The notes under the pieces are model-generated. The model was not told where the DNA came from. It did not search any database and saw only the letters and a list, made by a program, of their open reading frames with translations. From Alphaproteobacteria bacterium (GTDB lineage: Bacteria; Pseudomonadota; Alphaproteobacteria; UBA828), in NCBI GenBank assembly GCA_963422645.2, contig CAXXVO010000007.1:320001-384000 (forward strand): a DNA stretch of 64,000 nt. The letters run 5' to 3'. A program made the position numbers and the translations under genes. Below are positions 1,935 through 37,321 of this stretch, in pieces. Numbering within the stretch: position 1 is the stretch's first letter; each line of letters starts with the position of its first letter.

Positions 1935-4294
1935 ATGCCCAGTACCCTCCCAATGTGCCCTCCAGAGGCGGTCTCGATCGGCAACAGCTGCTTCGCCGTC
2001 CTGATCTCGGACGACACCTTCACCTACTTTTCCAACCTCATTCCCTTTGACAGCCACGCCGCCGATGACCGCACGGCCATGCTCTTGCGGATCGGCCGCC
2101 TCGCGGCGATCAGCGCGGTCTCGCCGCAGGAACTGGCTGACGCTTTCGCTGTCTCGCGCGCGACGGTGCAGCGCGCACGACGGCGCTACCTGGCCGAGGG
2201 CGAAGCGGGGTTCATGAAGCCCCGGCGCGGTCGCGGGCCGTCGGTGTTCACTCCGGAGTTGGCGGAGAAGGCGACGGCGTTGCTGGCATCGGGCCTGAGC
2301 GGCTCTGCGGCGGCCCGGGTTCTCGGCGTGTCAGCGCCATCGGTCAACAAGTGGCGCCGTCAGGGACTGATCGGCAACACGGAGGCGGATGGGGAGCCCG
2401 GACGCTCAGCGCTGGCTGCGCCGCCTGACGCGGGTGCGGCTCCTGAAGGCCGTGTCGATGAAGAGAGTACCGGTGCCCCGGGGCCGGAGACGGCGCCGGG
2501 GCTGGAAGCGCAGCCGCAAACGGATCGCAGCGCGCGCGATCGGCGGGACCGGCAGGCGCCGATGGGGCGTGCGACTTGCGATGTTCCGGCTCGGGTTCTG
2601 GCCAGTTGTGGACAGGCGGGGCCGGTCGAACCGCAGTTCGCCGCCGCCGCCCGCGGTGTCCGCTTCGGCGGCGTGCTCGCCGCCCTGCCGGCCCTGCTGA
2701 AGGAAGGTCTTCTCTCCGAGACCGGTCTCCTGCCATTGCTGCCGAAGGGCTATTACGGCTTGCCTACGATCCTGCTCTTCCTGGCCTTCATGACCTTGGC
2801 GCGGGTGCGCAACCCCGAGAGCCTGCGCTACCAGGCGCCGGGCGAATGGGGCGCCATTCTCGGCCTCGATCGCTGCCCCGAGGTCAAGACGCTGCGCCGC
2901 AAGATCGCTCTCATCGCCGACGACGAGGCCGGCGTGCGGGCGTGGCAGCTCGCCCTTGCCAGGCGCTGGCAGGCGCCGACGAGCCGGAGCTCTGGGCGAC
3001 GCTGGCCATCGACGGGCACGTCAAGGTCTACTCCGGCCGCAAGGGGCGCTTGCCCAAGCACTTCGTCTCGCGCGAGAAGCTGTGCCTGCCGGCGAGCGCC
3101 AGCTACTGGATCAACGCTCTGGGCGGCAAGCCGCTGCTCTGTCTGCACAAGCCGCTGGACCCGAAGATGGTCGCGGCCATCGAAGCCGACGTGGTGCCGG
3201 CGCTGCAGGAGCTTGGGATCGTTGGCGCCGGGGCGCCGGACCTGACCGCCGAGCATCCCGGCCAGCCGGCGCTCACCCTGGTCTTCGACCGCGAGGGCTG
3301 GAGCCCGGATCTGTTCCGCCGGCTGGCGAGGCGCGGCGTCGCCTGCCTGACCTGGCACAAGAACTTCAGGGGCGAGGACTGGCCGGCCGAGGACTTCGGC
3401 GCGATGACCGTTCCCATTCACGGACCGGCGGCGGACGGCAGCGCCACCATGCGGCTGGCTGAGAAGCCGGTGACGTTGCCGAACGGCTTCAGGGTGCGCC
3501 AGATCCGCCGCCTGCTCGACAACGGCCGTCAGGTGCCGCTGATCACCACCGATCCGCACAAGCCGATGGCTGAGGTTGCGGGCGCCATGTTCTCGCGCTG
3601 GTCGCAGGAGAACTTCTTCAAGTACATGCGTGACGAGTTCAATCTCGACGCCCTGCCGACCCACGAGCTCGAGCCTCTCGATCCCGCCGCCATGGTCGTC
3701 AACCCGCTGCGGCGGGCCTATGACAAGGCAATCCATCGCCTCGACCGCCAGCTTGGCCGCCTGCGCAACCGCATCGCCGACACGGCCCGGAAGAAGCAGC
3801 CGACGGCGGAACTCAGGAGGGAAGTCAGGGACCTCCAGGATGTCCGCGACATCGTCAGGGCCAGCCGCAGGGAGACGCCCAAGCACTGCCGGGCCGGCGA
3901 CCTCGACGAAGCCGAGCAGCTCGATGCCTTGCCCGCGCGCGAGCGCCTCCTCCTCGACGTCATCCGGATGATCGCCTACCGCGCCGAAACCCGCATGATG
4001 CTTCCCGTCATGCAGGCGCAGGGCCACAAGCCCCATCCCCGGAAACTGCTTCAAGCGCTGCTCACCGCCGATGCCGACATCCTGCCGGATCCTGGCAATG
4101 GCCTCCTGCGGGTCCACATTCTTGGCCTCGCAAACGACGCCTGCGACCGTTGGATCGATGCGGTTCTGAGCGACCTGAACGCCACCGAAACGGTCTTCCC
4201 CGGCACCCGTCTGCGCATAGTCTACGACATCGACGGGGCCTCGGAATCCGCGCGGCTCGTGTCACCTAAAATCAGCAGAGGTCAGGAAGTCTGA
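1935..4294 (+). CDS. ISx transposase split into two frames by a -1 shift near 2970 (about 786 aa if fused)
   Basis: Frame A has two HTH-like segments and GLDRCPEVKTLRRK. Frame B has IDGHVKVYSG, VFDREG and RWSQENFFK (candidate D-D-E). The frames join at ...RRWQ / ADEPELWATL.... Confidence 0.85.
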
Positions 4295-4336
4295 GTTTAT
4301 GCACCGGAGACGCCGGGAACAAGTAGCAGAATTACC

Positions 4337-4464
4337 TAGTGTCGGTAACACGGGATTTGTCCGGTCCATGTACCAGATGATCTGTCCGGTTTTAGAAGGC
4401 TTCTGTGGCTTGGAGGGAGGCGATGCACCGCACCGCCGTAGCTATCAGGGTGCGCCGCCCTTGA
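4337..4464 (+). mobile_element. Possible truncated IS left end (IS630-like) with an aborted ORF
   Basis: TAGTGTC... start, strong RBS GGAGGGAGG and ATG at 4423 reading MHRTAVAIRVRRP*. Resemblance only. Confidence 0.3.
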
Positions 4465-4674
4465 GGCCAGCCGGCCGGGACGTGATGATGGCTACAACGG
4501 GACTGCAGGACTATCCCCGATCCTTTCGGGCGGGGAGAAGAGGACGGGGGCTGACGTGACCAGTGCAGCAAGTCCGCGGGCCGGTCGCACTCCTGTGCCG
4601 ACGGCCGGCATGCGATACAGCTCGAGTGACGTCATGCGGGGCGTGCTCGGTCACACGCGTGCCCGCCCTCGCCG

Positions 4675-5722
4675 GTGACGGACACGGCGCCCTCGGCTAG
4701 CGGCCCCGAGCCGCTGCCGCGTCGGGGCTTCGTTCTTCTGGCGGCGCTGACGCTCCTGTGGGGCGTCAACTGGCCGATGCTCAAGATCGCGCTCAACGAG
4801 CTTCCGGTGCTCACCTTCCGCGGAACCTGCCTCTTCTTCGCGGGCTTGATCATCGTCGCTCTCCACCGCGCGATCGGCCGCTCGGTCGCGGTGCCGCGCC
4901 GGCAATGGCGGCCGCTCCTGATTACGGGTTTCTTCAACATCACCGTCTGGCATCTCGCGACCGGATTCGGGCTCGTCTACACGACCTCCGGCCGCGCCTC
5001 GATCATCGCCTACACGATGCCGATCTGGACCGTGCCAATTGGCTACGCCGTGCTCGGCGAGCGACCGGGTTGGCGGCGGATGAGCGCGCTCGCGCTGGGC
5101 ACCGCCGGGCTCGGGGTGCTGATCGCCACCGACGCCCAGACCCTCAGCGGCGCACCTCTGGGGCCGCTCCTGGTGCTCTGCGGTGCCGTCGGCTGGGCCT
5201 GCGGCACGGTCGCGCTCAAGCGCACCGACTGGCAGGTCTCCATGTGGGTGCTGGTCGGCTGGCAATGCCTGATCTGCGGCCTGCCGATCTTCATCGCGGC
5301 GGCTATCGTAGACGCCGAAACGGTACAATTTCCGTCGCTATGGCCGCTCGTTTCGGTGATTTACAACATTTTTGCGCCCTTCGTGATTTGCTACTACCTC
5401 TATTACGAGATTGTGCGGATATTCCCGACCGGGGTGGCGACGGTTGGCACCCTCGGCATTCCCGTGATCGGGCTTTTCAGCGGAGCACGGCACGTCCTTC
5501 GCCGCCCCGCACGTGTCCGGCGCGGCCGCGGTGGTGTGGGCCGCGTTTCCGAACAAGGGCGGCGCGGGGATCGTGGAGCGCCTGCTGGCGACGGCCCGCC
5601 CGCTGGAATTGGTCCTGGGCGAGCCGCTGGGCTGGAGTGAGTTCACGGCTCTCGGCCTGGTCGTCGCCGCACTTGCGGTGCCGGTGATGACGCGGCCCGA
5701 GAGCTTTGTGCGCAGCGGTTGA
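4675..5722 (+). pseudogene. EamA/DMT family transporter interrupted by a 121-bp insertion
   Basis: LLWGVNW N-terminus and multiple TM segments. ...IGLFSGA and LVLGEPLGW... rejoin in frame if 5488-5608 is removed. Confidence 0.85.
5488..5608 (+). other. Inserted fragment of an S8 (subtilase) peptidase gene
   Basis: Reads GTSFAAPHVSGAAAVVWAAFPNKGGAGIVERLLATARPLE, the catalytic-serine motif of subtilisins. Confidence 0.85.
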
Positions 5723-5867
5723 GGGCGCGCTGGCACGCGGCCATCGTGTGCCAGCGGTTCGAGAATTGGTTTGCATGTCGGGCCAGCCCTTGAACGGGCG
5801 CCGTGGCCACCCCTATGCTTGTAACTCTTGCAGCCGGCGCCTGTGCCGGCCTTGAGGGGAGACGCGC

Positions 5868-6836
5868 ATGGCGACGACCCATCGCAGCAAGGTCGTGATC
5901 ATCGGTTCTGGCCCTGCCGGCTACTCTGCGGCGATCTACGCCGCGCGCGCCAACCTAGAGCCGATCATGGTGCAGGGGCTCGAGCCCGGCGGCCAGCTCA
6001 CGATCACCACCGATGTCGAGAACTATCCGGGCTTCGCCGATATTGTCCAGGGACCGTGGCTCATGGAGCAGATGGCGGGCCAGGCGGAAGCGGTGGGCAC
6101 GCGGCTGATACACGACATGATTGTCGCCGTGGACTTGGGTAAGCGACCCTTCGTCTGCACCGGCGATTCCGGCGATGTCTACATCGGTGACACGGTCATC
6201 GTCTGCACCGGCGCGCAGGCGAAGTGGCTGGGCCTGAAGAGCGAGCAGCGTTTCATGGGCTTCGGCGTCTCGGCCTGCGCAACGTGCGACGGATTTTTCT
6301 TCCGCGGCAAGGAGGTCGCGGTGATCGGCGGCGGCAACACCGCCGTGGAAGAGGCGCTTTACCTCACCAACCACGCGAGCAAGGTCACCCTCGTCCACCG
6401 CCGCGACGCACTGCGGGCCGAGAAAATCCTGCAGGATCGCCTGTTCCGCAACGACAAGATCGAGGTCCTGTGGGACCACGTACTGGACGAAATCGAGGGC
6501 GAGAGCGAGCCGCCGACGGTGACGGGAATCGCGGTGCGCCACGTCAAGACCAATGCGATGCATCGAATTCCGCTCTCGGGCGTGTTCATCGCCATCGGGC
6601 ATTGGCCCAACACCGAGCTCTTCGCGGGCCAGCTCGCGATGGACGACGAGGGCTACATCCAGACGATGGCGGACAGCACGAGGACGAACCTGCCGGGCGT
6701 GTTCGCCGCCGGCGACGTGCAGGACAAGGTGTTTCGGCAGGCGGTGACCGCCGCCGGCACCGGCTGCATGGGTGCGCTGGAAGCCGAGAAATTTCTCGCC
6801 GAGGCCGAGACGCCCGAGGCCGCTGCCGCGGCGTGA
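5868..6836 (+). CDS. trxB: Thioredoxin-disulfide reductase
   Basis: GSGPAG FAD motif, CATC redox centre, GGGNTA NADPH motif. Confidence 0.97.
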   Translation: MATTHRSKVVIIGSGPAGYSAAIYAARANLEPIMVQGLEPGGQLTITTDVENYPGFADIVQGPWLMEQMAGQAEAVGTRLIHDMIVAVDLGKRPFVCTGDSGDVYIGDTVIVCTGAQAKWLGLKSEQRFMGFGVSACATCDGFFFRGKEVAVIGGGNTAVEEALYLTNHASKVTLVHRRDALRAEKILQDRLFRNDKIEVLWDHVLDEIEGESEPPTVTGIAVRHVKTNAMHRIPLSGVFIAIGHWPNTELFAGQLAMDDEGYIQTMADSTRTNLPGVFAAGDVQDKVFRQAVTAAGTGCMGALEAEKFLAEAETPEAAAAA

Positions 6837-6864
6837 GCACCGGCGCGGCGCCGGGGGCGCTGCC

Positions 6865-7755
6865 ATGGACTGGAACCGGCTACGCATCTTTCAGACGGTC
6901 GCTGAGCACGGCAGCTTCACCCGTGCCGGCGACATTCTCGAGCTCAGCCAGTCGGCGGTGAGCCGGCAGATCGCGGCACTTGAGAAGAGCCTCGACGCGG
7001 TCCTGTTCCACCGTCACTCGCGCGGCCTGCTGCTGACCGAGCAAGGTGAGGCGCTCTATCGCACGGTCCGCGAGGTCTCGGCCAAGCTCGCGATGACCGA
7101 AGCGCAAATCGCCCATGCGCGCGACCGGCCCTCGGGCCCGCTGAAAATCACGACGACGGTCTCTTTTGCCTCGGTATGGCTGACGCCCAGGATCCCCGCC
7201 TTCAACAACCTATATCCGGAGATCAAGATCACCCTGCTGACATCGGACAACCTGCTCGACCTCGCCATGCGCGAGGCGGACGTGGCGATCCGCATGATCG
7301 AACCGACCGAGCCCGATCTCGTCCGCCGCCACCTGATGACCGTCAATTCTTATATTTACGCTTCGCCGGACTATCTGGCCCGCTTCGGGCCGATCGATGC
7401 GGCGGAGGACCTCGCCCGCCAGCGCCTGATCATCTACGGCCAGGGGCCGCTCACCCCCATCGCCAACCCCGACTGGCTGATCGGTATCTCGGGCAATCCG
7501 ATGGCCGATGGCCGCATCGTGCTGGAGGCGAACAACATTTATTGCATGCGCGAAGCGGTGGAGAGCGGCCTCGGGATTGCTGCGCTGCCTGACTACGTGG
7601 CTTGGGGCAGCCAGCGGCTCCAGCGCGTGCTGCCGGACCGTCAGGGTCCGCCCTTCGACGCCTTCTTCACCTACGCCGAGGAATTGCGATACTCCAAGAG
7701 AATCGGGGTTTTCCGCGATTTTCTGCTGTCCGAGGTGGCCAGCTGGCGCTCCTGA
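6865..7755 (+). CDS. LysR family regulator (LsrB/VtlR-like)
   Basis: MDWNRLRIF...GSFTRAG...SQSAVSRQI HTH. Position directly after trxB is typical of lsrB/vtlR in alphaproteobacteria. Confidence 0.92.
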   Translation: MDWNRLRIFQTVAEHGSFTRAGDILELSQSAVSRQIAALEKSLDAVLFHRHSRGLLLTEQGEALYRTVREVSAKLAMTEAQIAHARDRPSGPLKITTTVSFASVWLTPRIPAFNNLYPEIKITLLTSDNLLDLAMREADVAIRMIEPTEPDLVRRHLMTVNSYIYASPDYLARFGPIDAAEDLARQRLIIYGQGPLTPIANPDWLIGISGNPMADGRIVLEANNIYCMREAVESGLGIAALPDYVAWGSQRLQRVLPDRQGPPFDAFFTYAEELRYSKRIGVFRDFLLSEVASWRS

Positions 7756-15145: not shown

Positions 15146-16333
15146 ATGTTCCTGAAAGCGCTGAAGGCCCGCAACCGGGCGTTCCTCGAAGCAGCGGTTG
15201 CGCTGCACCAGGCGGGCCGGGTGCCGGCCGGCGCCTATCTGCTCGACCTCGACACGATGACCGAGAACGCGCGCCTGATGAGCGCCGAGGCGGCCCGGCT
15301 CGGCCTCGACCTGCTGGCGATGACCAAGCAGATCGGCCGCAACCCGCCGGCCCTCGATGCGCTCAAGGCGGGCGGGGTCGACCGCTTCGTCGCGGTCGAC
15401 ATGGCCTGCGCCCGGCCGATCCACGCCAACGGCCACGGCTTGGCCCACATCGGCCACCTCGGCCAGATCCCGCGCCACGAGGCGGCGGAGGCCGCGGCCA
15501 TGCGCGCCGATTACTGGACCGTCTTCAACGAGGAGAAGGCGGTCGAGGCCGCGCAGGCGGCAGCGGCGCAGGGTCACGAGCAGGCGCTGATCGCGCGCAT
15601 CCAGGCGCCCGGCGACACCTTCTACTCCGGCCACGAGGGGGGCTTCGACGCGAGCGCAGTCGAGGCCGCGGCGGATGCGCTCGATCGCACGCCGGGCGGC
15701 CGCTTCGCCGGGCTCACCACCTTCCCCGCCCTGCTCTTCGACGAAGCCTCAGGCGAGGCGCGGCCGACCCCCAATCTCGCGACCCTGCGCGAGGCCGCGT
15801 CACGGCTCGGCAGGGAGGGACGGCACGACATCGTCATCAACGCGCCGGGCACCACGTCCGCCCGCGTGATGGCAGCGCTGGCGGAGGGCGGCGCGACCCA
15901 GGTAGAGCCCGGCCACGGGCTCACCGGCACCTCGCCGCTCCACGCCCGCTCCGACCTGCCGGAGCGCCCGGCGATGCTCTATCTGAGCGAGGTCTCCCAC
16001 TTCCACCAGGGCCGCGCCTACTGCTTCGGCGGCGGGCTCTACATCGACCCGGTGTTCGAGTCCTACCCGCTCAAGGCGCTGGTGGGCCCGGACCCGGAGG
16101 CGGCGCTCGCGCAGGAGGTCGACGCCGCCACGCCGGACCCGGCGATGATCGACTATTACGGCCAGCTCCTGCCGGAGCCCCACCAGCCCGTCGCGGTGGG
16201 CGATACGGTGATCTTCGGCTTCCGCGCGCAGGCCTTCTTCACCCGCGCCCTCATCGTGCCGGTCGCAGGGATCGGCAGCGGCCGGCCCGAGGCGCAGGGT
16301 GTCTGGACGACTGACGGCCGCCCCGCTTCCTGA
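15146..16333 (+). CDS. YhfX-like PLP-dependent alanine racemase family protein
   Basis: AMTKQIGRNP, HIGHLGQIP, INAPGTTS and VEPGHGLTG motifs. RBS before ATG 15146. Confidence 0.85.
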   Translation: MFLKALKARNRAFLEAAVALHQAGRVPAGAYLLDLDTMTENARLMSAEAARLGLDLLAMTKQIGRNPPALDALKAGGVDRFVAVDMACARPIHANGHGLAHIGHLGQIPRHEAAEAAAMRADYWTVFNEEKAVEAAQAAAAQGHEQALIARIQAPGDTFYSGHEGGFDASAVEAAADALDRTPGGRFAGLTTFPALLFDEASGEARPTPNLATLREAASRLGREGRHDIVINAPGTTSARVMAALAEGGATQVEPGHGLTGTSPLHARSDLPERPAMLYLSEVSHFHQGRAYCFGGGLYIDPVFESYPLKALVGPDPEAALAQEVDAATPDPAMIDYYGQLLPEPHQPVAVGDTVIFGFRAQAFFTRALIVPVAGIGSGRPEAQGVWTTDGRPAS

Positions 16334-16415
16334 CCCGCGGACGCCGCGCGCCAGGCGCTCCCGAACTGGAGCGACAGTCCTCGATCCCATGGGACAAGAA
16401 TCAACATTTTTCTGC

Positions 16416-16470
16416 GGGATTCGCCGGGATAAGTGGGATTAAGTGGGATAAGTGGGATTCCGGGAGGGAT
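16416..16470. repeat. Six GGGAT direct repeats at 9-12-bp spacing
   Basis: GGGAT starts at 16416, 16426, 16435, 16445, 16454 and 16466. The core is (AAGTGGGAT)x3. Confidence 0.75.
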
Positions 16471-16650
16471 ACTCTTGCCCAGGAAGCGCCCGTCATTCCG
16501 ACATCATCTGCCGCGGTCCCTTCGCTCCTCATGACATAATGGTGTCGCACCGCATCTGCGCCGTGCACCGCACCATGGTTGGGGGTCGCGCGAGCCTGAA
16601 AGGTCTCGCGTGTGGAACATTGGGTCGCGCGCGGAAACGAGTCGAGAGGG

Positions 16651-18303
16651 TCAGCCGACGGAGGTTGGCGCGAGGCGGGAGAGCTTGCGGGTCTCGGCGG
16701 TAATGACGTCAACCACCGCCGGTTGGCCCTCGTTCGTGGCGTGGATCGCGCGCTCCAGCGCGGGCCTCAGCGCCGCGGGTTCGGTCACCTTCTCGGCATG
16801 GCAGCCGAGGCTCGCCGCGATGGTCGCGTAGTCGCCCTGCTGCCGGTTCGCCTCGAAGCGCGCCGAGGCCTCGGGGATGTTGCGGTCGTAGCCCGAGAAG
16901 ATCGAATCGTGCTTGATCACGGTGAGGATCGGGATGTCGTTGCGCGACGCGGTCTCCCAGTCCATGCCGGTCATGCCCACCGAGGCGTCGCCCATGACGT
17001 TGACGACCAGCTTGTCGGGGTTCGCGAGCTTCGCGCCCATGGCGAGGCCGAGGGAGAAGCCGAGCTGCGAGGACTGCCCCCAGCCCAGATAGCTGCGCGG
17101 CGGACCCGATTGGTAGAAGACGCTCTGGATATCCCGCGAGGCGCCGGACTCGTGAGTGAGCATCGACGTCTCCGGGTCGAGCAGGGACCAGAGCTCGCGC
17201 ATCATGCGGTAGCCGTTGATGGGCGCCGAATCGTCGGCGAAGAGCGGCTCGTACTCGGCATGCCACTCGCGCTTGATGCGGGCGATGGTGTCGGCGGTCT
17301 CGGCGCGGCGCTCGGCCCGGCCCTCGCCCACGTGGCGCCTCAGCTCGGCGGCGAGCTGCGCGAGGAAGAGCTTGGCGTCGGCCACCATGCCGACGGCCGC
17401 AGGATACTCCTTGTTGATATCAATGGGGTCCACGGTCGCGTGGATAATGGTCTTGCCGTCCGGGATATTTGGCGTGAAGGGCGCGCGCGTCAGGCTGGAG
17501 CCCACGGCGAGCACGCAGTCGCTCGCCTGCAGATAGTGCGCGGCCATGGCCGTGGTCGAGAGCGCGCCGACGCCCGCCGCCAGCGGATGCACCTCAGGAA
17601 TCGCGCTCTTGCCCTGCAGCGTCGTCATCGCCGGCGCGCCGAGCAGCTCGGCGACCTCACGGAGCTCGTCGCTCGCCTCGGCCCAGAGCACGCCCTGGCC
17701 GGCCCAGATCAGCGGTGTCTCGGCTGCGAGCAGGCGCTCGGCTGCCTCCCGCACCGCGCCCTCGTCTGCCGCAGAGCGCATGCGCCGCACCGGCGTGTAC
17801 TCGGGCGCACCATTCACCTCGCCCGCGCACGCATCGCCCAGCAGCTCCAGCATCACCGGCTGCGGCCTCCCTGAGCGGAGCGCGGTGAAGGCCTGGCGCA
17901 GCTTGATCGGCATGTGGTCGGCGGCCAGCACCTTCTGCGCCATTTTCGTGGTGGCGGTGTAATTCGCCTTGCTGTCGAAGGTGGGGGGCTGGTCGACATA
18001 GGACGTGCCGGGATGGCCGGGGAGGAAGAGCACCGGCGACGAATCCGTGTGCGCCTGGGCGACGCTGGCGAACGCGTTCTCCGATCCCGCCAGGGCCTGG
18101 ACCGTGAAGACGCCGATCTCGCGGCCGTTGGTGGAGCGCGAGATACCGTCCGCCATGTTGCCGGCGACCCGCTCCTGCCGTGTGGTGATGACGCGAAGCC
18201 CCGCCCGCGCCATCGCCTCGATGATCGGGGTCATGGGGAAGCAGAGGCACTGGCGGACCCCTTCCGCCTTCAGAATCTTCACCAAGAGATCGGCGCCGGT
18301 CAT
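16651..18303 (-). CDS. Thiamine-diphosphate-dependent enzyme (acetolactate synthase-like family)
   Basis: RQERVAGNMADG N-terminal motif and GDASVGM TPP-binding motif. Confidence 0.9.
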   Translation of the reverse strand: MTGADLLVKILKAEGVRQCLCFPMTPIIEAMARAGLRVITTRQERVAGNMADGISRSTNGREIGVFTVQALAGSENAFASVAQAHTDSSPVLFLPGHPGTSYVDQPPTFDSKANYTATTKMAQKVLAADHMPIKLRQAFTALRSGRPQPVMLELLGDACAGEVNGAPEYTPVRRMRSAADEGAVREAAERLLAAETPLIWAGQGVLWAEASDELREVAELLGAPAMTTLQGKSAIPEVHPLAAGVGALSTTAMAAHYLQASDCVLAVGSSLTRAPFTPNIPDGKTIIHATVDPIDINKEYPAAVGMVADAKLFLAQLAAELRRHVGEGRAERRAETADTIARIKREWHAEYEPLFADDSAPINGYRMMRELWSLLDPETSMLTHESGASRDIQSVFYQSGPPRSYLGWGQSSQLGFSLGLAMGAKLANPDKLVVNVMGDASVGMTGMDWETASRNDIPILTVIKHDSIFSGYDRNIPEASARFEANRQQGDYATIAASLGCHAEKVTEPAALRPALERAIHATNEGQPAVVDVITAETRKLSRLAPTSVG

Positions 18304-22195: not shown

Positions 22196-24710
22196 TCAGA
22201 CTTCCTGACCTCTGCTGATTTTAGGTGACACGAGCCGCGCGGATTCCGAGGCCCCGTCGATGTCATAGACTATGCGCAGACGGGTGCCGGGGAAGACCGT
22301 TTCGGTGGCGTTCAGGTCGCTCAGAACCGCATCGATCCAACGGTCGCAGGCGTCGTTTGCGAGGCCAAGAATGTGGACCCGCAGGAGGCCATTGCCAGGA
22401 TCCGGCAGGATGTCGGCATCGGCGGTGAGCAGCGCTTGAAGCAGTTTCCGGGGATGGGGCTTGTGGCCCTGCGCCTGCATGACGGGAAGCATCATGCGGG
22501 TTTCGGCGCGGTAGGCGATCATCCGGATGACGTCGAGGAGGAGGCGCTCGCGCGCGGGCAAGGCATCGAGCTGCTCGGCTTCGTCGAGGTCGCCGGCCCG
22601 GCAGTGCTTGGGCGTCTCCCTGCGGCTGGCCCTGACGATGTCGCGGACATCCTGGAGGTCCCTGACTTCCCTCCTGAGTTCCGCCGTCGGCTGCTTCTTC
22701 CGGGCCGTGTCGGCGATGCGGTTGCGCAGGCGGCCAAGCTGGCGGTCGAGGCGATGGATTGCCTTGTCATAGGCCCGCCGCAGCGGGTTGACGACCATGG
22801 CGGCGGGATCGAGAGGCTCGAGCTCGTGGGTCGGCAGGGCGTCGAGATTGAACTCGTCACGCATGTACTTGAAGAAGTTCTCCTGCGACCAGCGCGAGAA
22901 CATGGCGCCCGCAACCTCAGCCATCGGCTTGTGCGGATCGGTGGTGATCAGCGGCACCTGACGGCCGTTGTCGAGCAGGCGGCGGATCTGGCGCACCCTG
23001 AAGCCGTTCGGCAACGTCACCGGCTTCTCAGCCAGCCGCATGGTGGCGCTGCCGTCCGCCGCCGGTCCGTGAATGGGAACGGTCATCGCGCCGAAGTCCT
23101 CGGCCGGCCAGTCCTCGCCCCTGAAGTTCTTGTGCCAGGTCAGGCAGGCGACGCCGCGCCTCGCCAGCCGGCGGAACAGATCCGGGCTCCAGCCCTCGCG
23201 GTCGAAGACCAGGGTGAGCGCCGGCTGGCCGGGATGCTCGGCGGTCAGGTCCGGCGCCCCGGCGCCAACGATCCCAAGCTCCTGCAGCGCCGGCACCACG
23301 TCGGCTTCGATGGCCGCGACCATCTTCGGGTCCAGCGGCTTGTGCAGACAGAGCAGCGGCTTGCCGCCCAGAGCGTTGATCCAGTAGCTGGCGCTCGCCG
23401 GCAGGCACAGCTTCTCGCGCGAGACGAAGTGCTTGGGCAAGCGCCCCTTGCGGCCGGAGTAGACCTTGACGTGCCCGTCGATGGCCAGCGTCGCCCAGAG
23501 CTCCGGCTCGTCGGCGCCTGCCAGCGCCTGGCAAGGGCGAGCTGCCACGCCCGCACGCCGGCCTCGTCGTCGGCGATGAGAGCGATCTTGCGGCGCAGCG
23601 TCTTGACCTCGGGGCAGCGATCGAGGCCGAGAATGGCGCCCCATTCGCCCGGCGCCTGGTAGCGCAGGCTCTCGGGGTTGCGCACCCGCGCCAAGGTCAT
23701 GAAGGCCAGGAAGAGCAGGATCGTAGGCAAGCCGTAATAGCCCTTCGGCAGCAATGGCAGGAGACCGGTCTCGGAGAGAAGACCTTCCTTCAGCAGGGCC
23801 GGCAGGGCGGCGAGCACGCCGCCGAAGCGGACACCGCGGGCGGCGGCGGCGAACTGCGGTTCGACCGGCCCCGCCTGTCCACAACTGGCCAGAACCCGAG
23901 CCGGAACATCGCAAGTCGCACGCCCCATCGGCGCCTGCCGGTCCCGCCGATCGCGCGCGCTGCGATCCGTTTGCGGCTGCGCTTCCAGCCCCGGCGCCGT
24001 CTCCGGCCCCGGGGCACCGGTACTCTCTTCATCGACACGGCCTTCAGGAGCCGCACCCGCGTCAGGCGGCGCAGCCAGCGCTGAGCGTCCGGGCTCCCCA
24101 TCCGCCTCCGTGTTGCCGATCAGTCCCTGACGGCGCCACTTGTTGACCGATGGCGCTGACACGCCGAGAACCCGGGCCGCCGCAGAGCCGCTCAGGCCCG
24201 ATGCCAGCAACGCCGTCGCCTTCTCCGCCAACTCCGGAGTGAACACCGACGGCCCGCGACCGCGCCGGGGCTTCATGAACCCCGCTTCGCCCTCGGCCAG
24301 GTAGCGCCGTCGTGCGCGCTGCACCGTCGCGCGCGAGACAGCGAAAGCGTCAGCCAGTTCCTGCGGCGAGACCGCGCTGATCGCCGCGAGGCGGCCGATC
24401 CGCAAGAGCATGGCCGTGCGGTCATCGGCGGCGTGGCTGTCAAAGGGAATGAGGTTGGAAAAGTAGGTGAAGGTGTCGTCCGAGATCAGGACGGCGAAGC
24501 AGCTGTTGCCGATCGAGACCGCCTCTGGAGGGCACATTGGGAGGGTACTGGGCATGGTTGAGACCGTGCAATTGGTATCAAATTATACTATCAGACCTCG
24601 GGCGCGACACCCAGCGAAAAACCGCCTGAAACAACCGAAATGTATCAGAATTCAAGGAGTTCCCGGCACGCTGCCCAGAACAGCCAGCATCACGAGGTCA
24701 GGAAGTCTGA
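22196..24710 (-). mobile_element. ISx copy 3, complete, inverted orientation
   Basis: Same IRs and 2,515-bp length. Two visible SNPs versus the other copies (near 22265 and 24588). Same frameshift. Confidence 0.95.
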
Positions 24711-26238
24711 GTATAGGGATCAGCTGCATCGGTTCCGGGTGCGCCAGGATTTGCAGGATGTTCCAGCCTTGCTTTCGAGCGGTGACGATGACGCTGCGCA
24801 TTCCGGCGAAGTTGCAGGCGCCTTGCAGGGAGCGGAAGCCGCCTGAGATCTTCTCATGCACTTTGTTCATACGGATGTCACGCTCCGCCTCGTTATTCGT
24901 GAACGGCGTGCGCAGGTCGGTGAGGAAGCGCAGGCAGCCCTCCTTATGCTTTTGAAGGCGGCGCGCGAGGTTGTGGCCGATGCGGCGTTTCTTTCGCCCT
25001 CGCTTTGCGATCTGGAGCGGCGGTTGGGCCTCATGGAAGGCGATGGCTTCTTCGAGGATACGGTCCCATGCCCTTGAGATGCGGGCCACCAGGGAGGCGG
25101 GGACTTGACGGTCTTTCTCACGGGCGAAGCGGGCGGCCCTGCGCGCGCGCTGAAGCAGGCGGTGCATGCTCGCCGCCCATTCCTCCTTCTCGATGTCGAT
25201 CAGGGCCTGGAGTTCGCGCAGGTGATGTGCGTTGCAGGCGCCGTGGCGGACGCCCTTGATGGTGAAGTAGGGGGCGAAGTCGTCGTGGACGAGGATGCCT
25301 TTCAGGTTCTTTTCGACATCGCCGCGTCCCTCGCCGATGCGCAGGACGGTGAGCAACGGGGTGCACAGCACATGGAGCCAGCGGGTACGGGCGGCGATAC
25401 GCAGGCCGGTCTCGTCGAGGTGCTTGACCGGCGCCTGCGTGCGGATCAGATCGGCGACATGGTCGAGGAAGCCCTCGAAGCGCTGCGCTGTGCGCCGGCC
25501 CATGGCGGCGATCGTGGCAGTGGAGATGGACACCGCGAAGATGTCGCTCATGAGTTCGGCCAGACGCTTCTCGGGCACGAACTGGGCGTACAGCAGGTAA
25601 CTCACCCAAGCGGTGATGCGAGGGCCGTACTGGACCGGGGCGGTGACGCCCGGCGGGAAGGCGGCTCGTGTCAGCGTGCCGCATGCGCCGCAGAGGCAGC
25701 GATGGGCGCGGTGTTCGGTGACCTCGAGAGGCTGCGGCTCGGGTACGTCGAAGACCTGCCGACAGGCGGGCGCGCCTTGCCGGTCGGCGTCCGAGAGCTC
25801 GACGCCACAGCCGGAACAGGTGGAGGGGTGGTGATCGACGACACGGTCCGGGCTGTCGCTCCGCGCGAGGGTGGTTCCCTTGTGGCCGGGCTGGCCGCCA
25901 CTGGGCCCGCCGGACTTTCCGCGCTGGCTTTGGGTGCGCCTCTGGGCTCCGCTTTTCTTCTTGAGCCCGTCGCTGGCGGGGGGCTTGCTGCTTGTGGTGC
26001 TGTTGAGGGCCGCGCTGCGCTCGAGTTCGGCGATGCGCTCGCGCAGGGCCGCGTTCTCCTGCTCGAGTGCGGCATTTTCCCGGGCGAGCGCGGTGGCTGA
26101 TCGCAGCAGCCCCTGCCCCCATTCCCGGACGGCAACGACGACAGTGGTTGCGAGGGATGATGGCTCGAGAAGCTCCTTCAGGCAGCAGAAGGCCTCGTTA
26201 CGGGCGGCGAGGTCTTCGTGCCAGTGCGACACCGTCAC
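24711..26238 (-). CDS. IS66 family transposase (last codons replaced by ISx sequence)
   Basis: NSTTSSKPPASD, GGQPGHKG, zinc finger, HLDETG, CNAHHLREL and FTNNEAERDIR. GTG start overlaps the MTase TGA. Confidence 0.92.
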
Positions 26239-26900
26239 GTGTCTTCGGCCTCGACGGCCATCATGGCGGCGAGCACGGCGAGGCGTTCGCCCGGCGGCAA
26301 GGCCTGGTAGCGCCGGCCCCAGTTGGCTGCCTTGCGCTTGATGCGCTGGCGGTCGGTGAAGTTCCGGCCTGCGTGGCTGGCCCAATGCATCCGGTCGGGG
26401 GCGTAGTTGAACCAGACGACCTCGGTTCGCACCAGACCCTGGGTCGTGACCTGCAGCGCCAGCCGGCGCCATCCCGCCAGCACCTCGTCATAGAGCGCCG
26501 ACGGATGGCCCGAGATCATGACCTGGCAGGGCAGAGCCTTGAGCAGCGCGAGAAGCGCGACGTGGCCGGCCTCCTCGTACTCGAAGCGGTAGCGCTGCGC
26601 CGAGCGGCGGGTCGCGTGCAGATAGGGCGGATCGCTGTAAACCAGCTCCGGGCCCAGGAACGGGAACGAGGCCAGGAAGTCATGGGCACAGCCGTGAACC
26701 AGATCGACCGGGTAGTCGCAGACGAAGGCCTCGAGCGCCTGCGCATCGCGGTCGATGCCGATCGAACGCACGGCCGGCGGCTTGCGCTTCATCAGCGCCC
26801 CGCCCCCAAGGTGGCTTTCGATGTAGACGGAGTGCGGCGGCATCAGCGCAATCAGCGCTTGGCACAGACCTGCTGTCGCCTTCGAGCCGAAATACCCCAT
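26235..26900 (-). CDS. DNA adenine methyltransferase (D12/Dam-like, minimal)
   Basis: YFGSK, YIESHLGGGA (SAM binding) and YSDPPY (catalytic) motifs. Confidence 0.9.
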   Translation of the reverse strand: MGYFGSKATAGLCQALIALMPPHSVYIESHLGGGALMKRKPPAVRSIGIDRDAQALEAFVCDYPVDLVHGCAHDFLASFPFLGPELVYSDPPYLHATRRSAQRYRFEYEEAGHVALLALLKALPCQVMISGHPSALYDEVLAGWRRLALQVTTQGLVRTEVVWFNYAPDRMHWASHAGRNFTDRQRIKRKAANWGRRYQALPPGERLAVLAAMMAVEAEDT

Positions 26901-27187
26901 GGACCGCTCCCGTCACGCGAGAGAGCAGTCCATAGTCCCGCAACTCTATGAGGTCAAGAACCAATCGCGGTGGCAGAACCAGACCGCGGCCGCCGCCATA
27001 ATCACCGTCCTCAACTCAGGATTGGGGTACCTGGGTAGTTACAAAACAACTTGAGAGTCCCCCTTTACTCCGATACCGACCCTTTCGTGATTGGTGATCT
27101 CTTGGATAGAGATCGCGGTTGCGCAATCGCCAATCTGGTACCGCCCGTTTCGTGCGATTGCTATGGGAAGGGTCATCACGAATCTCC

Positions 27188-27801: not shown

Positions 27802-28165
27802 ATGACGCAGAAGGCACCCGGACGCTCCCACCGCACAGGCATGACGGTCATGGAGCTGTTGCGGAAGTTCCCCGACGATGCCACTGCTGAGACGTGGTTC
27901 GAGGCCCAGCGCTGGCCCGAAGGCCGGTTCTGCCCCAACTGCGGCTCCACCAACACGGTCGTCGTCACGAGCCGGAAGCCCATGCCCTACCGCTGCCGGG
28001 ACTGCCGCCATCACTTCTCGGTGCGCAAGGGCACGGTCATGCAGTCCAGCAAGCTCGGTCTCCAGAAATGGGCCATCGCGCTCTACATGATGACCACGGG
28101 CATCAAGGGCACGTCGAGCATGAAGCTCTATCGCGAGGTCGGCATCCGGCAGGCCACCGCGTGGT
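27802..28165 (+). pseudogene. IS1595 transposase, N-terminal half
   Basis: FPDD...RWP, CPNCG...CRDC zinc ribbon, GIKGTSSMKL...QATAW. Continues as FLMQRIRE at 36719. Confidence 0.92.
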
Positions 28166-28171
28166 TGTAGA

Positions 28172-28311
28172 CGGACGAAAGTCGTTGTGAATCGGGTCAA
28201 GGGGTGGAATCAGGCGGAATCGGGCGGAAGGTGGCGGAATCTCAAGGGGATGCGCGGCGGCACGGTGGCGGTGCGGCGGCTGGCGTGCGGACGGAAGTCT
28301 TTGCGAATCGG
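28172..28311. repeat. Left-end sites L1 and L2 with a phased spacer
   Basis: CGGACGAAAGTCGTTGTGAATCGG (28172-28195) and CGGACGGAAGTCTTTGCGAATCGG (28288-28311). Four GGYGGAA units at an exact 10-bp period (28201-28240). Confidence 0.8.
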
Positions 28312-28533
28312 GCCGTGCAGAGGCCGTGAATTGTCAATCGGCTTTCAATACTGACCCCCGATCGGCGTGCAAAATTGACCCCCCTGAGTGGCACGGCGGA
28401 GGTTGTCCCGGTAGCCAATAGGGGGGACCCGCGCGGCTTCGTGTGGCGCCCTGCGCTACGCGGAGCGAAGCCGCGTGGGGGGTCCCTGTTGGCCCACCGG
28501 GGCAACCGGGCCGCAAGGGAGGCCGGCGGCGGG

Positions 28534-29262
28534 TCAGGAGCGGTTCTTGAAGCGCCAGCTCTCGTTGCCGGTCTCGATGATCTCGCAATGATGGGTGAGG
28601 CGATCGAGCAGCGCTGTGGTCATCTTGGGGTCGCCGAAGACGGATGGCCATTCGCCGAAGGCGAGGTTTGTGGTGATGACGATCGAGGTGCGCTCGTAGA
28701 GCCGGCTCATCAGATGGAAGAGCAGCTGCCCACCGGCCTGGGCGAAGGGCAGGTAGCCGAGCTCGTCGAGGATGACGAAGTCGCGGCGGACGAGCTGGTC
28801 TGCAGTGCGGCCCTGGCGTCCGGCGCGAAGCTCGGCCTCGAGGAGGTTGACCAGGTCGACGACGTTGTAGCACCGGCCGCGCGCGCCCTTGCGGATGCAG
28901 GACCGCGCGATGGCGACGGCGAGATGGGTCTTGCCGGTACCGGTGCCGCCGACCAGCACGATGTTGCGTTTGCCCTCGAGGAAGCCGCCGCCGGCGAGCT
29001 CCTGGATCAGGGGCTCGTTGACCGGCGAGGCGGCGAAGTCGAAGTCGGCCAGCTCCTTGACCGTCGGCAGCTTGGCGGAGGCCATCTGGTACTTGATCGA
29101 GCGGGCCCTCTTGTCGGCGATCTCGACCTGCAGCAGCGTACCGATGATCTGTTGCACCGGATGGCGGCGCTTGAGCCCGTCGGCAAGGATGTCGTCGTAA
29201 GCGGCGCGCATACCTGCGAGCTTCAGCTGGGTCATCATCTCCAGCACATCATGACGCTCCAT
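28534..29262 (-). CDS. istB: IS21 helper ATPase
   Basis: GGTGTGKTH Walker A, ILDELGY Walker B and ALLDRLTHH. Confidence 0.96.
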
Positions 29263-30763
29263 GACCGGCCTCCCTCAGGCTGTCGTAGCGCTGACAGTCG
29301 GCTACCGGCTTGTGGCGAAGCTGCAGGCCCTCGGGCGTCGGGATGATTGCCGGCGGTGCCGGCTGGCGCTGCCGGGCGAGGATGTTGAGCACCACGTCGG
29401 CGCTGCAGGCACCGCAGTCGAGCGTCTCGGCACAGGCCGCCTCAACCGCCTCCAGTCCGTCCTCCAGCACCGCCGCGAGCACCTTGACGAACTGCCGGTC
29501 GCCGTCGTCGTGGCCCGCGAGCCGGGTTCGCAGGCGGCCGAGCGCGTTGGGCAACTGCCAGTCCTTGAAGGGCGCGCCATTGCGTAGCGCGCCGGGCTTC
29601 CGCGTCAGGATCGGCACGTAATGCCACGGATCGTAGACGAACCGGCCGCGCCCGAAGCTGCGGGGGTGCTCGGCAACGGTCTCGCCGTCCTGGCGGATGA
29701 CGATCCGATCGGCATAGGCCCGCACGTCCACCGGCCGGCCGACGGCGCGGGCCGCGACGCTGTACTGGTTGTTGTCGAAGCGCACCAGACAGGTCTTCGA
29801 GACCGACACCTCGCTGGCATGGAAGCCGTCGAAGGGGCCGCGATACGCCATCAGGAAGGGCTGCTCCTCCTCGAACACCTGCCACACCGTCTTGCCCGGG
29901 ATTGTCGGATGCGGATGCTTCTTGGCGTCCTCGATGCACCGATCCATCAGCCACTCGTTGATCTCGGCGTAGGAGCGGCCCCGCGGGATGGGCACGAACA
30001 GGCGGCCGCGAAGGTCACCCACCTGCTTCTCGACCTGCCCCTTCTCCCAGCCAGCCCCTGGCGTGCACGCCACAGGCTCCACCAGATGGTGCGAGCACAG
30101 CTCCTGGAAGCGGCGGTTGTAGTCCCGCTTCTTGCCCACGAAGATCGTGCTCACCGCCGTCTTCATGTTGTCGTAGATGCCCCGCCGGCAGACCCCGCCG
30201 AAGAAGCGGAAGGCACGCTCGTGCGCCTCGAAGACCATCTCCTGGCTCTCGCGGGGAAAGATCTGGACCAGATACATCCGGCTGTGGCACAGCCGCATGT
30301 GCGCCGCCTTCACCCTGGTCGTCGCGCCCGACAGACGCGCGTACTCGTGGCTCCAGTCGAACTGGTAGGCCTCGCCGGGATCGAAGATCAGCGGCACATA
30401 GGCCTGCGCCGGCGACAACAGCCGCCACCGGCGCCGCCAGGCCCTGGCATAGCGGCGAACCGCGTCATAGCCGCCCTTGTAGCCCAGCGACACAAGGTCT
30501 TCATGAATCCGCAGAAGAGACAGCCGATCCTTGCGTGCCTTCTTCTCGTTGGCCTTCAGCTGGCGCTCAAGCTCCTCCACCCACAGCCCAAGCTTCGGCA
30601 TCGGCTGGATCTTGCGCTCGTAGCTGTGCGAGGTCGCATCGCCCCGCACCACCTTGCGTATCGTGTTCTTGGAAACCCTCAAATCCCGGGCGAGCTTCTT
30701 GATCGGAACGCCCTTCACCAGATGATCCCGACGGATCTTCGCGATCGTTTCCACAACCAGCAT
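29249..30763 (-). CDS. istA: IS21 transposase
   Basis: [18 protein letters not shown] and GWEKGQVE (DDE). Confidence 0.96.
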
Positions 30764-30882
30764 CTCCCCCACCACCCCGTCCGTCCAAACGACGAGGTGT
30801 GTTCATGGACACAAATCCAAGGGGGTCAATTTTGGACGCCGATCACCCCCAATAGGGGGTCACTTTTCCACGCTTAACAACA

Positions 30883-31161
30883 GCCCGCGCGCGCGGCCGG
30901 CCTGGCGGCGCGCGAATCGCAGGTCGCCGCACTCGGGGGAGAGCACGCCCGGCCTCTCGCGCCCGCCGAGACGCCCCGCGAGGGCGACGGCGTGCTGATG
31001 CACGCGGCCGGGCGGCGGCGGCGCATCGGCCACCATATCGGCCTCTGGTGCCGCATCGCGGGCGAGCCCTGCGTGCTGCACTGCGCGGAGGGCGCGGGCA
31101 CGATCGTGCACCCGATCCGCGAGCTGCCGCTGCGCGGCCTCGCGCTCGAGGGGGTCTACCG

Positions 31162-31171
<10 letters not shown>
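30883..31171 (+). pseudogene. C-terminal remnant of an NlpC/P60-type phage tail assembly protein
   Basis: ...PREGDGVLM...GHHIGLW...VLHCAEGAG...EGVYRWL*. The 5' part is missing at the IS21 end, so it is absent from the ORF track. Confidence 0.75.
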
Positions 31172-35382
<4,211 letters not shown>

Positions 35383-35396
35383 GAGATTCGACGGCG

Positions 35397-36020
35397 GTGC
35401 CCGGCGTGAGAGACCCCCGCGAATCAACCCCGGTCGAGCCCGGAGAGGGTTCCACCCCCCCCATTCGCGTCGTCCGCGCAGCCATCGGCCCTCGAGCAAT
35501 GGCCGAGGTCGAGCGAGCCGTCAACGGGCTCGCGCTCGCGCGCCGGGGCCCCGGCGCGGACGACTGCTACGAGGCATGGCTGCCCGACGGGATGCTCCCG
35601 GCAGACTGCACCGACGCCCTGGACGCCCTCGCCCGCAACTACGCCCGCGAGGTGCTGAACGCATGCGCGGACACGCCCTCGCCCGCCGTCTGCAACTGTT
35701 ACTTCGCAGGACAGGCCTGCCTCTGGCACGTCGACCAGTACGCAGGGCGGGGAGTTCCCGACACCCTCGACCGGACCGTCTCCGCAAGCCTCATCGTCGA
35801 ACGCGCCGCAGCCGGCGGCGACATGGTCTTCCAGGACCCGGGCCGGAAACGCCGCCCCGTACGGATCGACCCGCCGCCGGGATCGCTCGTCCTCTTCCCC
35901 GCAGACTGGTGGCACAGGGTCGCACCCGCCACCGCCGGCATCCGCCGCTCGCTCGTGCGATGGTGGGCGCAGTCGAACGGAGAGAGGTTCTCGTCCCTCG
36001 CCCGGCCCGACGGAGGATGA
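35397..36020 (+). CDS. 2OG-Fe(II) oxygenase (prolyl-4-hydroxylase/PKHD-like)
   Basis: WHVD...RTVSASL...GGDMVF...PGSLVLFP..WWHRVAP...RRSLV gives the HxD...H triad plus RxS. Confidence 0.85.
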   Translation: MPGVRDPRESTPVEPGEGSTPPIRVVRAAIGPRAMAEVERAVNGLALARRGPGADDCYEAWLPDGMLPADCTDALDALARNYAREVLNACADTPSPAVCNCYFAGQACLWHVDQYAGRGVPDTLDRTVSASLIVERAAAGGDMVFQDPGRKRRPVRIDPPPGSLVLFPADWWHRVAPATAGIRRSLVRWWAQSNGERFSSLARPDGG

Positions 36021-36024
36021 CACG

Positions 36025-36545
36025 GTGATCGACATCCAGGACGCGATCCGCCGGCTCATGCCCACGGCTTCCTGCCGGGCTCCTTCCCCGGCGGCATCGA
36101 CACGATGTTCGACGAGGCGACATGGAAGGCCTACGGCTGGAACCCGATCCCCGGCCTGCCGGACTACGGCCCCGACCCGGACGCCAGCCCCAAGCCGGCA
36201 TGGGCCATGATCGCCGAAGCGGGCGAGCGCGCCGCCGCCGAAGACCTCCGGCAAGAAAGGGCGCAAGGGGTCGACCGGGAGGCAACCCGCCGCATCCGGA
36301 AGGCCTACGGGGCGAGGAGCTGGGAGCACGAGGCCAGACGGCGGCTGCGCGGCGCCGCCACCGAGGAGCAGGACGCCGAACGCGACCGCCTGCGCCGGCT
36401 CTGCCGCGCGCTCCGCAAGCGCATCGAAACCATGGACGCGGGCGCGCTCGAGCGCTTCGACGCAGCCGACGACAGACACTGGCGCCCGCCCGAAGCCGGG
36501 CCCGCCCAGCCCCCCGCGCCCGAGGCGGAGGAGAAGGCGGAATAG
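36025..36545 (+). pseudogene. Phage tail-associated protein, probably frameshifted near 36061
   Basis: VIDIQDAIRRLM joins HGFLPGSFPGGIDTMFDEATW if one C is added in ATGCCCACGG. Alternatively an intact ORF at 36105-36545. Confidence 0.5.
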
Positions 36546-36664
36546 AACCCTTGCAGGGGCCGTGCACACCGAATTCCGCGCCCCTGAACGGCCCGTGCAT
36601 GGCCGATGCAGAGGCCGTTTTTCCAGCCCGAATCAGCCCCGAAAATCAGCCTGTTTTCCAGGCC

Positions 36665-36708
36665 ATTCGCAAAGACTTCTGGCCGCGATTCGCAAAGACT
36701 TCTGGCCG
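36665..36708. repeat. Right-end sites R2 and R1
   Basis: ATTCGCAAAGACTTCTGGCCG twice at a 23-bp period. Its first 15 nt are the exact reverse complement of GAAGTCTTTGCGAAT at 28294-28308. Confidence 0.9.
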
Positions 36709-36714
36709 GCTACA

Positions 36715-37321
36715 GTGGTTCCTGATGCAGCGCATCCGCGAGGGCTTCATCGAAGGCGAGAACAAGCCTTTCCCCGGTCCGGTCGAGGCCGACGAGACGT
36801 ACATCGGGGGCAAGGAGAAGAACAAGCACGCCAACAAGAAGCTGCGTGCGGGTCGCGGTGCGGTCGGCAAGGCCGTGGTCGCAGGTGCCAAGGATCGCAC
36901 CACCAAGCGCGTTTCCGCCAAGGTAGTGCCCGACACCACCCGCCTGACCCTGAGCAACTTTGTAGCTGCCCATGCGAGCCCCGAGACCATGGTCTACACT
37001 GACGAGTCCAAGAGCTATTCAGGCCTTCCCCACCACGAGACCGTCGTCCACTCGCGCGGCGAGTATGTCAACGGCGACTGCCACACCAACGGCATCGAGA
37101 GTTTCTGGAGCCTGTTCAAGCGGGGCTATCACGGCACCTTCCACCACCTGTCCGAGAAGCACCTGGACCGCTACGTCCGGGAGTTCACGGGCCGCAACAA
37201 CATCCGCGACCTGGACACCATCGACCAGATGGCCGCGCTGGTGCGGGGTATGGTCGGCAAGCGGCTGCGCTACAGGGAGCTGATTGCAGACGACGGCCTG
37301 TCGAGCGGAGCGCGGTCGTAG
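36715..37321 (+). pseudogene. IS1595 transposase, C-terminal half
   Basis: VEADETYIGG, VYTDE, HTNGIESFWS and YVREFTGR motifs. Confidence 0.92.

Follow-up and report, generated by a model that had tools for sequence, protein, structure and literature searches.

Introduction

Phage Mu has TG...CA ends, duplicates 5 bp of its target upon insertion and carries, in its attL/attR pair, spaced sites at one end and adjacent sites at the other. Two Mu-type ends without the A and B genes make up the laboratory mini-Mu, which needs the transposase in trans, and transposons of the Tn7 and Tn5053 kind likewise have TGT at their ends, duplicate 5 bp and carry several sites for their transposase at each end. 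Here we describe an element with such ends in 64,000 nucleotides of an alphaproteobacterial genome (GTDB lineage UBA828; NCBI assembly GCA_963422645.2, contig CAXXVO010000007.1, positions 320,001 to 384,000). This whole stretch is called the window below (G000:C8:320001-384000), G000 being the genome under study with 5.9 Mb and an assembly rated 99.6% complete. The element, a unit of ~8.5 kb at window positions 28166-36714, is to judge from its sequence the remnant of a Mu-like transposable siphophage with both ends intact. Taken alone it is an ordinary defective Mu-like prophage, and prophages of this kind are known. What is not ordinary is the high copy number of its family and the re-ordered gene order.

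Among described phages, Rhodovulum phage RS1 and Rhodobacter phage RC1, both Mu-like siphophages of Alphaproteobacteria, show the same equipment. Their transposases are 35% identical to that of a full-length relative of the unit (G024:C1, see below), and they encode a CI-like repressor, a transposase with a 'DNA transposition protein', a late activator, terminase, portal and a Mu F-type minor head protein. At their right end minor tail proteins and a central tail fibre J are followed by one or two small genes; in RS1 the order of minor tail proteins, central tail fibre J, two small genes and end matches the right arm of the window unit. The window copy differs from both phages in that it retains the right arm only. 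Furthermore, RS1 is colinear with all late genes on one strand, its transposase gene is located 3 kb from the left end, the repressor within 5 kb and F in mid-genome.

According to a study of Leptospira transposable prophages, the gene order of transposable phages is strongly conserved (PMC8705779). A literature search confined to article listings yielded no published account of high-copy decayed Mu-like prophages or of a re-ordered Mu-like genome.

A single insertion into an IS1595 transposase gene

The unit begins with TGTAG and finishes with CTACA, i.e. with the TG...CA termini of Mu-like transposable phages. The left junction at 28166 reads ...GCGTGGT/TGTAGACGGACGAAAGTCGTTGTGAATCGG..., and the right junction, 36714 being the last base of the unit, reads ...GCAAAGACTTCTGGCCGGCTACA/GTGGTTCC... 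The flanks are the two halves of an insertion sequence (IS) transposase gene of the IS1595 family, which translate as ...GIRQATAW and WFLMQRIREGF... An uninterrupted paralogue at C8:679127-680059 (86-91% nucleotide identity) reads ...GIRQATAWFLMQRIREGF... at the corresponding place. Aligned to it at the nucleotide level, the halves have an overlap of four of the five duplicated bases. Because the flanks are halves of one gene and carry a 5-bp duplication, both ends of the unit derive from a single insertion event. Thus the reading of the junctions and the alignment to the intact paralogue bore out the GTGGT duplication and the exact split of the gene, which an earlier note made from the letters of this DNA had claimed.

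A 17-nt core, GAAGTCTTTGCGAATCG, with up to three mismatches matched the 64-kb window four times, at 28178 and 28294 on the forward and at 36663 and 36686 on the reverse strand. The expected number of matches was 0.12, and none of 100 shuffles reached four. A repeat search paired 28288-28310 with 36686-36708 (23 nt, 91% complementary). There are two sites of ~17-22 nt at each end, as noted before. On the left they are spaced with 116 bp from start to start (L1-L2), on the right they are adjacent with 23 bp (R1-R2), and the right pair is inverted relative to the left. This asymmetry matches that of the Mu ends. We infer that the sites are putative recognition sites which the transposase of the phage would bind. 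The coordinates of all features are collected in Table 1.

Table 1. Features of the 8.5-kb unit and of the interrupted gene (window positions)
Feature	Position	Strand	Details and basis
N-terminal half of the interrupted IS1595 transposase gene (target)	27802-28165	+	alignment, Pfam Zn_ribbon_IS1595
Target duplication, left copy GTGGT	28161-28165	none	read from sequence
Left (attL-like) end	28166-28331	+	166 bp, then IS21; same 166 bp 100% identical at 11 other loci
Site L1 (putative)	28166-28194		within left end; TGTAG...AAAGTCGTTGTGAATCG
Three GGCGGAATC-like 10-bp repeats	28202-28241		within left end
Site L2 (putative)	28288-28310		within left end; repeat search, motif match
IS21-family element, 2551 bp	28332-30882	-	istB 28534-29262, istA 29249-30775; Pfam
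K-position tail gene fragment, cut by IS21	30884-31165	+	C-terminal 94 codons; translation
I-J type central tail fibre / tip attachment protein, 1406 amino acids (aa)	31162-35382	+	PHROG, Pfam, tblastn
2OG-Fe(II) oxygenase-like gene, 207 aa	35397-36020	+	PF13640 2OG-FeII_Oxy_3 3.7e-10; phrog_61 1.4e-13
146-aa open reading frame (ORF), last gene before right end	36105-36545	+	high GC content at third codon positions; no Pfam/PHROG match
Right (attR-like) end	36546-36714	+	169 bp; last 117 bp 100% identical at 11 other loci
Site R2 (putative)	36663-36686		adjacent to R1
Site R1 (putative)	36686-36714		adjacent to R2; finishes CTACA
Target duplication, right copy GTGGT	36715-36719	none	read from sequence
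C-terminal half of the interrupted IS1595 transposase gene	36716-37321	+	alignment, Pfam DDE_Tnp_IS1595 2.4e-39

Full-length relative and Mu-like identity

The comparison set comprised 44 genomes of the bacterial family, including 20 other genomes of the same genus. GemA as a query matched 15 of the 44, among them 13 of the 20 of the genus, with 0 to 4 matches per genome in the latter. A full-length relative bearing such ends, for which the earlier note had proposed a search, was found in a sister genome (G024:C1). This prophage of ~39.2 kb begins with TGTAGGCGCGCAAAAGTCGGGCGGAATCG, its other end read from outside is TGTCGGGAAGCAGAAGTCGGACGGAATCG, and the termini TGTAG...CGACA have GCGAC on both sides. 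It encodes a transposase of 588 aa (rve 3.1e-15, Mu-transpos_C 4e-12, phrog_310 6e-71), a MuB-like ATPase (AAA_22; phrog_296 'DNA transposition protein' 1.6e-46) and a GemA homologue that is 56% identical to GemA of G000 (tblastn). Mu gp27, terminase, portal, Mu F, protease, capsid and a contractile tail are encoded as well; Gam-like and Mor-like matches were weak and both under the Pfam cut-offs. The transposase was 35-39% identical to transposases of Mu-like phages (15 of the 25 matching records), the matches including Shewanella MuM16-1, Pseudoalteromonas HS6, Ralstonia RS138, Rhodobacter RC1 and Rhodovulum RS1.

Neither the window unit nor the 39.2-kb relative contained TnsA, TnsC or TniQ. 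Because the relatives with such ends carry MuA/MuB-type genes together with phage genes, Mu-type head genes among them, the remnant is Mu-like and not Tn7-like. This upheld the earlier proposal of a transposable-phage remnant with both ends intact. On the other hand, the window unit lacks a transposase and a MuB-type ATPase of its own, and thus it is a derivative of a Mu-like member rather than an autonomous one.

Pfam families shared with phage Mu were GemA, Phage_Mu_Gp27, Portal_Mu, Phage_Mu_F, Phage_tail_S and Mu-transpos_C. In contrast to Mu with its contractile tail, the A-type phage of G000 (named for its left end, see below) and that of G035 are tailed like siphoviruses, their I-J tip being of the lambda type, and the gene order differs from that of Mu.

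Three side observations concern the relatives. G024 harbours a second Mu-like prophage type (L034 plus L035, together G024:C6:485700-525699), which is present in two identical copies and whose transposase shares only 32% identity with that of the first type. A related A/B pair occurs in G043; no structural genes were recognisable nearby with the queries used. A scan of genome contigs with two aligned transposases found no relative.

Gene order

The conserved Mu order, i.e. repressor and A/B at the left end followed by lysis, head and tail genes, was not followed in G000, G024:C1 and G035. In these three the block from the repressor to F was inverted, with F abutting the spaced-site end and the tail tip abutting the adjacent-site end. 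Repressor and transposase were central; in G024:C1 they were ~14-25 kb away from either end. The canonical, colinear order was seen in a prophage of G020, which belongs to another genus of the same bacterial family, and in RS1. In the 15 listed of the 25 matching phage records the transposase gene was located within ~5 kb of a record end, and F was near mid-genome in most of the 25 F matches listed, including Mu (16073-16870 of 36717) and its close relatives. The earlier note had called the phage undescribed. This holds for the rearranged gene order, not for the kind of phage, which by the identity of the transposase is a known Mu-like one.

The second prophage type of G024 had an order of its own, with the baseplate, head and packaging genes towards one end and, towards the other, the early genes and after them sheath, tube and tape measure. 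With at least two re-ordered layouts in the genus and the transposase far from both ends, the family bears on the position dependence of the transposition enhancer, of immunity and of headful packaging.

Termini and units across the genome

Left (L) and right (R) termini of the family were counted genome-wide by script, and 23 L..R pairs were made by position and orientation. G000 has 43 left and 41 right termini, all beginning with TGT(A/G)G. The left termini comprise 20 of the A-type, which is that of the window, and 23 of a B-type ~69% identical to it; 12 right termini are identical to that of the window and 29 are variants. A perfect 5-bp duplication flanked 20 of the 23 pairs (exceptions C9:628068, C14:56507 and C1:17642). 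Nine pairs combined a B-type end with an A-type end, eight of these with a perfect duplication. The 43 L termini are bordered by 39 different 5-mers; thus insertion was not site-specific.

The 23 units measure 720 bp to 22.7 kb, and the 20 with both ends and the duplication span 0.9-22.7 kb. All sizes were different; thus no derivative was copied as such. Accordingly, recurrence of the same 8.5-kb unit with other duplications, as envisaged in the earlier note, was not seen at any other site in G000. Pairwise comparison of 18 A-type copies gave a median identity of 99.4% over the first 166 bp. A-type left arms were 85.6-98.6% identical to that at C8:85071, B-type left arms ~94-98% identical, and A-type right arms 96.8-99.97% identical to the right arm of the window unit.

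Inward of the left ends the genes were always on the opposite strand and ran, starting from the end, Mu F, portal, terminase, Mu gp27, lysin, HNH and GemA. The matches were Portal_Mu 3.5e-78 (A-type), Mu gp27 4.5e-32 and GemA 9.1e-25; the lysin is of the SLT type and the terminase is the large subunit. The right arms run from head protease via capsid, G, tail tube, tape measure, K and I-J to the right end. Going inward from I-J, the genes read as those for tape measure, tail chaperone, major tail protein, a Mu G-type morphogenesis protein (Phage_tail_S 6.7e-33), major head protein, cement/scaffold protein and head protease. The unit C8:85071-107742 (22.7 kb, duplication GACCA) contains both arms, an S24 CI-like repressor homologue, a DNA methylase and stumps of the transposition genes, i.e. 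transposase residues 31-108 and MuB-like residues 326-402 in the numbering of the relative's proteins. Portal, terminase, protease and capsid genes are thus located inside this duplication-bounded unit, and the I-J tail tip inside the window unit.

In many other units the internal break coincided exactly with an IS21 or with part of an unrelated 5.19-kb transposon; some were joined directly, e.g. C18:138849-141520 with a 3-bp overlap. The unrelated transposon (5192 bp, ends TGAGCGCGC...GCGCACGCTCA) has ~25 copies of 99.4-100% identity, lies inside many phage remnants and encodes a helix-turn-helix (HTH) protein of 205 aa, a DDE protein of 524 aa with a weak rve match, an AAA_22 ATPase of 277 aa and a DUF3991/Toprim protein of 289 aa (e.g. 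L004, G000:C8:804000-815200, reverse strand 2310-7501). These HTH, DDE, AAA_22 and DUF3991/Toprim genes had been considered as the transposition genes of the phage family and were rejected, as they belong to the separate transposon. Also rejected was C12:45860-72755 as a 27-kb full-length copy; it is chromosomal DNA between unrelated ends. In an A-type left arm a GcrA-like domain (3.4e-08) was located between the MuB stump and the large terminase gene, in the position of a small terminase (L001 4920-6089, minus strand).

On a reading that is less likely than not, a lineage of Mu-like phages of this genus broke the conserved order, with repressor and transposase in the centre and both late-gene blocks pointing outward, and in G000 acted as a high-copy transposon with at least 43 insertions. 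It would have left natural, duplication-flanked mini-Mu shells of 0.9-22.7 kb resembling miniature inverted-repeat transposable elements (MITEs). If this MITE-like reading were true, the ends being more uniform than the arms, the shells would stay substrates for the transposase of any superinfecting relative. The ~40 insertions in one 5.9-Mb genome, most of them decayed to two-ended shells, are a natural test bed for the decay of transposable phages, and the family could reveal if the ends of a phage live on as non-autonomous substrates of transposition.

Cargo of the 8.5-kb unit

No phage transposase, head or lysis gene was found inside the unit, in agreement with the earlier note. Its description of the cargo held for three of the items. 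The IS21 carries istB (IstB_IS21 3.2e-75) and istA (rve and Mu-transpos_C_2) between inverted repeats at 28360-28386 and 30818-30844, which makes it a member of the IS21 family. The 1406-aa protein matched phrog_31 'central tail fiber J' (3e-87) and Pfam FNIII-A_GpJ (3.6e-12), and tblastn matches of its gene cover the 'minor tail protein' / 'central tail fiber J' of Xanthomonas phages. The oxygenase was confirmed by Pfam and PHROG. On the other hand, the label NlpC/P60 was not confirmed and goes by the position of the fragment ahead of I-J. The 94-aa fragment is called K-like because it occupies the place that K has in lambda; it finishes with ...LEGVYRWL, as does the 180-aa gene preceding I-J in G035, and neither the fragment nor this full-length homologue had a sequence match in Pfam, PHROG or the PDB.

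The 146-aa ORF had been termed tail-associated, a label that goes by position and has no family match beside it. It gave nine tblastn matches in G000 including the window's own, every one adjoining an R end, and a scan of genome contigs with this ORF found no relative. Within the gene of the J-like protein, a 12-bp tandem repeat (CCGACA units, 34966-35114) encodes a (PT)n linker. The repeat is not equally long in all copies, and past it the reading frame is lost in one of them (L007).

Transposase supply

Pfam searches of G000 with PF09299 and PF02914 were blank, and those with PF06527 and PF08722 (TniQ, TnsA) gave no matches. In all four cases 14 control genomes were equally silent, so the former blanks are without weight and the latter are weak evidence. 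The presence of a transposase was therefore judged by tblastn with proteins of the relatives. Three divergent transposase queries, the first and the second type of G024 and one from G020, detected no intact Mu-type transposase in G000 and matched N-terminal fragments only (C10:~193950-194640, C16:157880-158371 and C8:90973-91209). B queries matched a single C-terminal fragment.

By their sequence, the ends of the window unit look competent for transposition. Because a matching transposase was not detected in G000 and because IS21 and the 5.19-kb transposon have ends unrelated to those of the phage family, the unit should be immobile unless a related phage infects. Thus the suggestion that it is still mobilisable in trans is not supported for now. 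This also sets it apart from the laboratory mini-Mu: it is natural, the loss of its interior is associated with an IS21, it shows no sign of movement in its present form, and a donor transposase is lacking.

Proposed history and alternatives

We favor the view, with a probability of about 80%, that a Mu-like siphophage inserted into the IS1595 gene, lost its interior in place at an IS21 and was left as an inert shell. A complete or nearly complete phage would have entered the gene by DDE transposition with a 5-bp duplication, its transposase recognising the repeated ~22-bp sites, two of them spaced at the head-packaging end and two adjacent at the tail-tip end. Later an IS21 would have entered the prophage. 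Either an adjacent deletion or a recombination event between copies of IS21 would then have removed, in place, the DNA between IS21 and the left end. Some 25-30 kb may have gone in this way, and with it the repressor, the transposition genes A and B, the genes for lysis, packaging and the head and most of those for the tail. The remainder would be the 166-bp left end, IS21, the right arm (K', I-J, oxygenase, 146-aa ORF) and the right end, a non-autonomous shell.

Several observations at the IS21 bear on this view. G000 contains 58 full-length IS21 copies (87 high-scoring segment pairs), almost all of them 99.8-100% identical and hence younger than the more diverged phage arms. Only four of the 58 have kept a flanking direct repeat; thus recombination or deletion at IS21 copies is the rule in G000. 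The copy in the window has no flanking repeat; on the left it borders end sequence, on the right the middle of the K-like gene. An IS21 lodged between a 166-bp left end and a truncated gene indicates a deletion at the IS and not a designed module. The earlier idea of a shuttle for receptor-binding modules is therefore without support; the tail-tip genes were retained because they adjoin the right end.

Two observations weigh against a loss in place. G000 has no full-length copy with intact A/B, so the state of the locus before the deletion is one that we infer. Furthermore, the right arm of the window unit (30883-36714) has a near-identical counterpart in the unit C8:251738-263158, which has a B-type left arm and the duplication CGGGC; over 5832 bp the two arms are 99.97% identical and differ by a single mismatch and a single gap. 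The junction of IS21 with the K-like gene falls on the same nucleotide in the two units, the IS21 of the latter being inverted. The shared junction and the near-identical arm could mean that movement took place after the arrival of IS21. This would fit the alternative that the unit, or a precursor without the centre, transposed into the IS1595 gene as a mini element, mobilised in trans by the transposase of a full-length phage resident in the same genome that has since been lost. Both ends are preserved and match those of many other copies without a difference, 20 derivatives keep both ends and the duplication, and the higher identity of the first 166 bp of the A-type than of the adjoining arms suggests constraint on the ends. 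Yet no two of the 23 units share a size, the IS21 copies are younger than the phage arms, and an intact transposase was not found. In addition, homologous recombination within an IS cannot switch which IS end meets a flank; thus the shared K junction is not a simple copy. We read it as an insertion hot spot of IS21 that was struck independently in two near-identical prophages, since repeated hot-spot insertion can produce shared junctions in both orientations. Taken together, we consider transposition as a mini element unlikely.

The loss of the interior in place after a single phage insertion was also weighed against two alternatives that concern the nature of the unit and the origin of its ends. 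A Tn7-like or Tn5053-like transposon with captured phage tail genes could have TGT...ACA ends, a 5-bp duplication and several end sites, which are common to these families, and the Mu-transpos_C fold also occurs in TnsB and TniA. However, the duplication-bounded units of the relatives hold GemA, gp27, terminase, Mu F, portal, capsid and tail genes, i.e. phage structural and Mu regulatory genes, Portal_Mu was confirmed for the A-type portal of G000, and the diversity of the insertion sites speaks against a single attachment site. The TniQ and TnsA searches agree with this to the small extent that their silent controls permit, and we regard such a transposon as very improbable. The same holds for the possibility that the two ends stem from two prophage insertions united by recombination between IS21 copies. 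Such recombination appears common in G000 considering the few copies with flanking repeats, but the flanks of the unit, being halves of one IS1595 gene with a 5-bp duplication, require a single insertion and contradict it.

IS21 junctions and neighbouring elements

Genome-wide, seven flank sequences were common to at least two IS21 ends, and five of the seven abut both IS21 ends; one shared flank is a site in the B-type left arm that was used three times. The occurrence of shared flanks at both IS21 ends suggests nucleotide-precise insertion hot spots in repeated DNA.

To the left of the IS1595 target, a pair of genes for proteins of 221 aa and ~513-606 aa is located at 24652-26900 on the minus strand of the window. 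It recurs at C12:46064-48264 and C5:264092-266295 and may be another mobile unit. A sequence of 42-45 bp at 27001-27045 occurs at more than 60 places in the genome with 97-100% identity and looks like a repetitive extragenic palindromic (REP-type) element. Finally, an IS of 1051 bp with a 321-aa IS1595-like ORF (L001 12657-13707, G000:C8) is present in ~20 near-identical copies.

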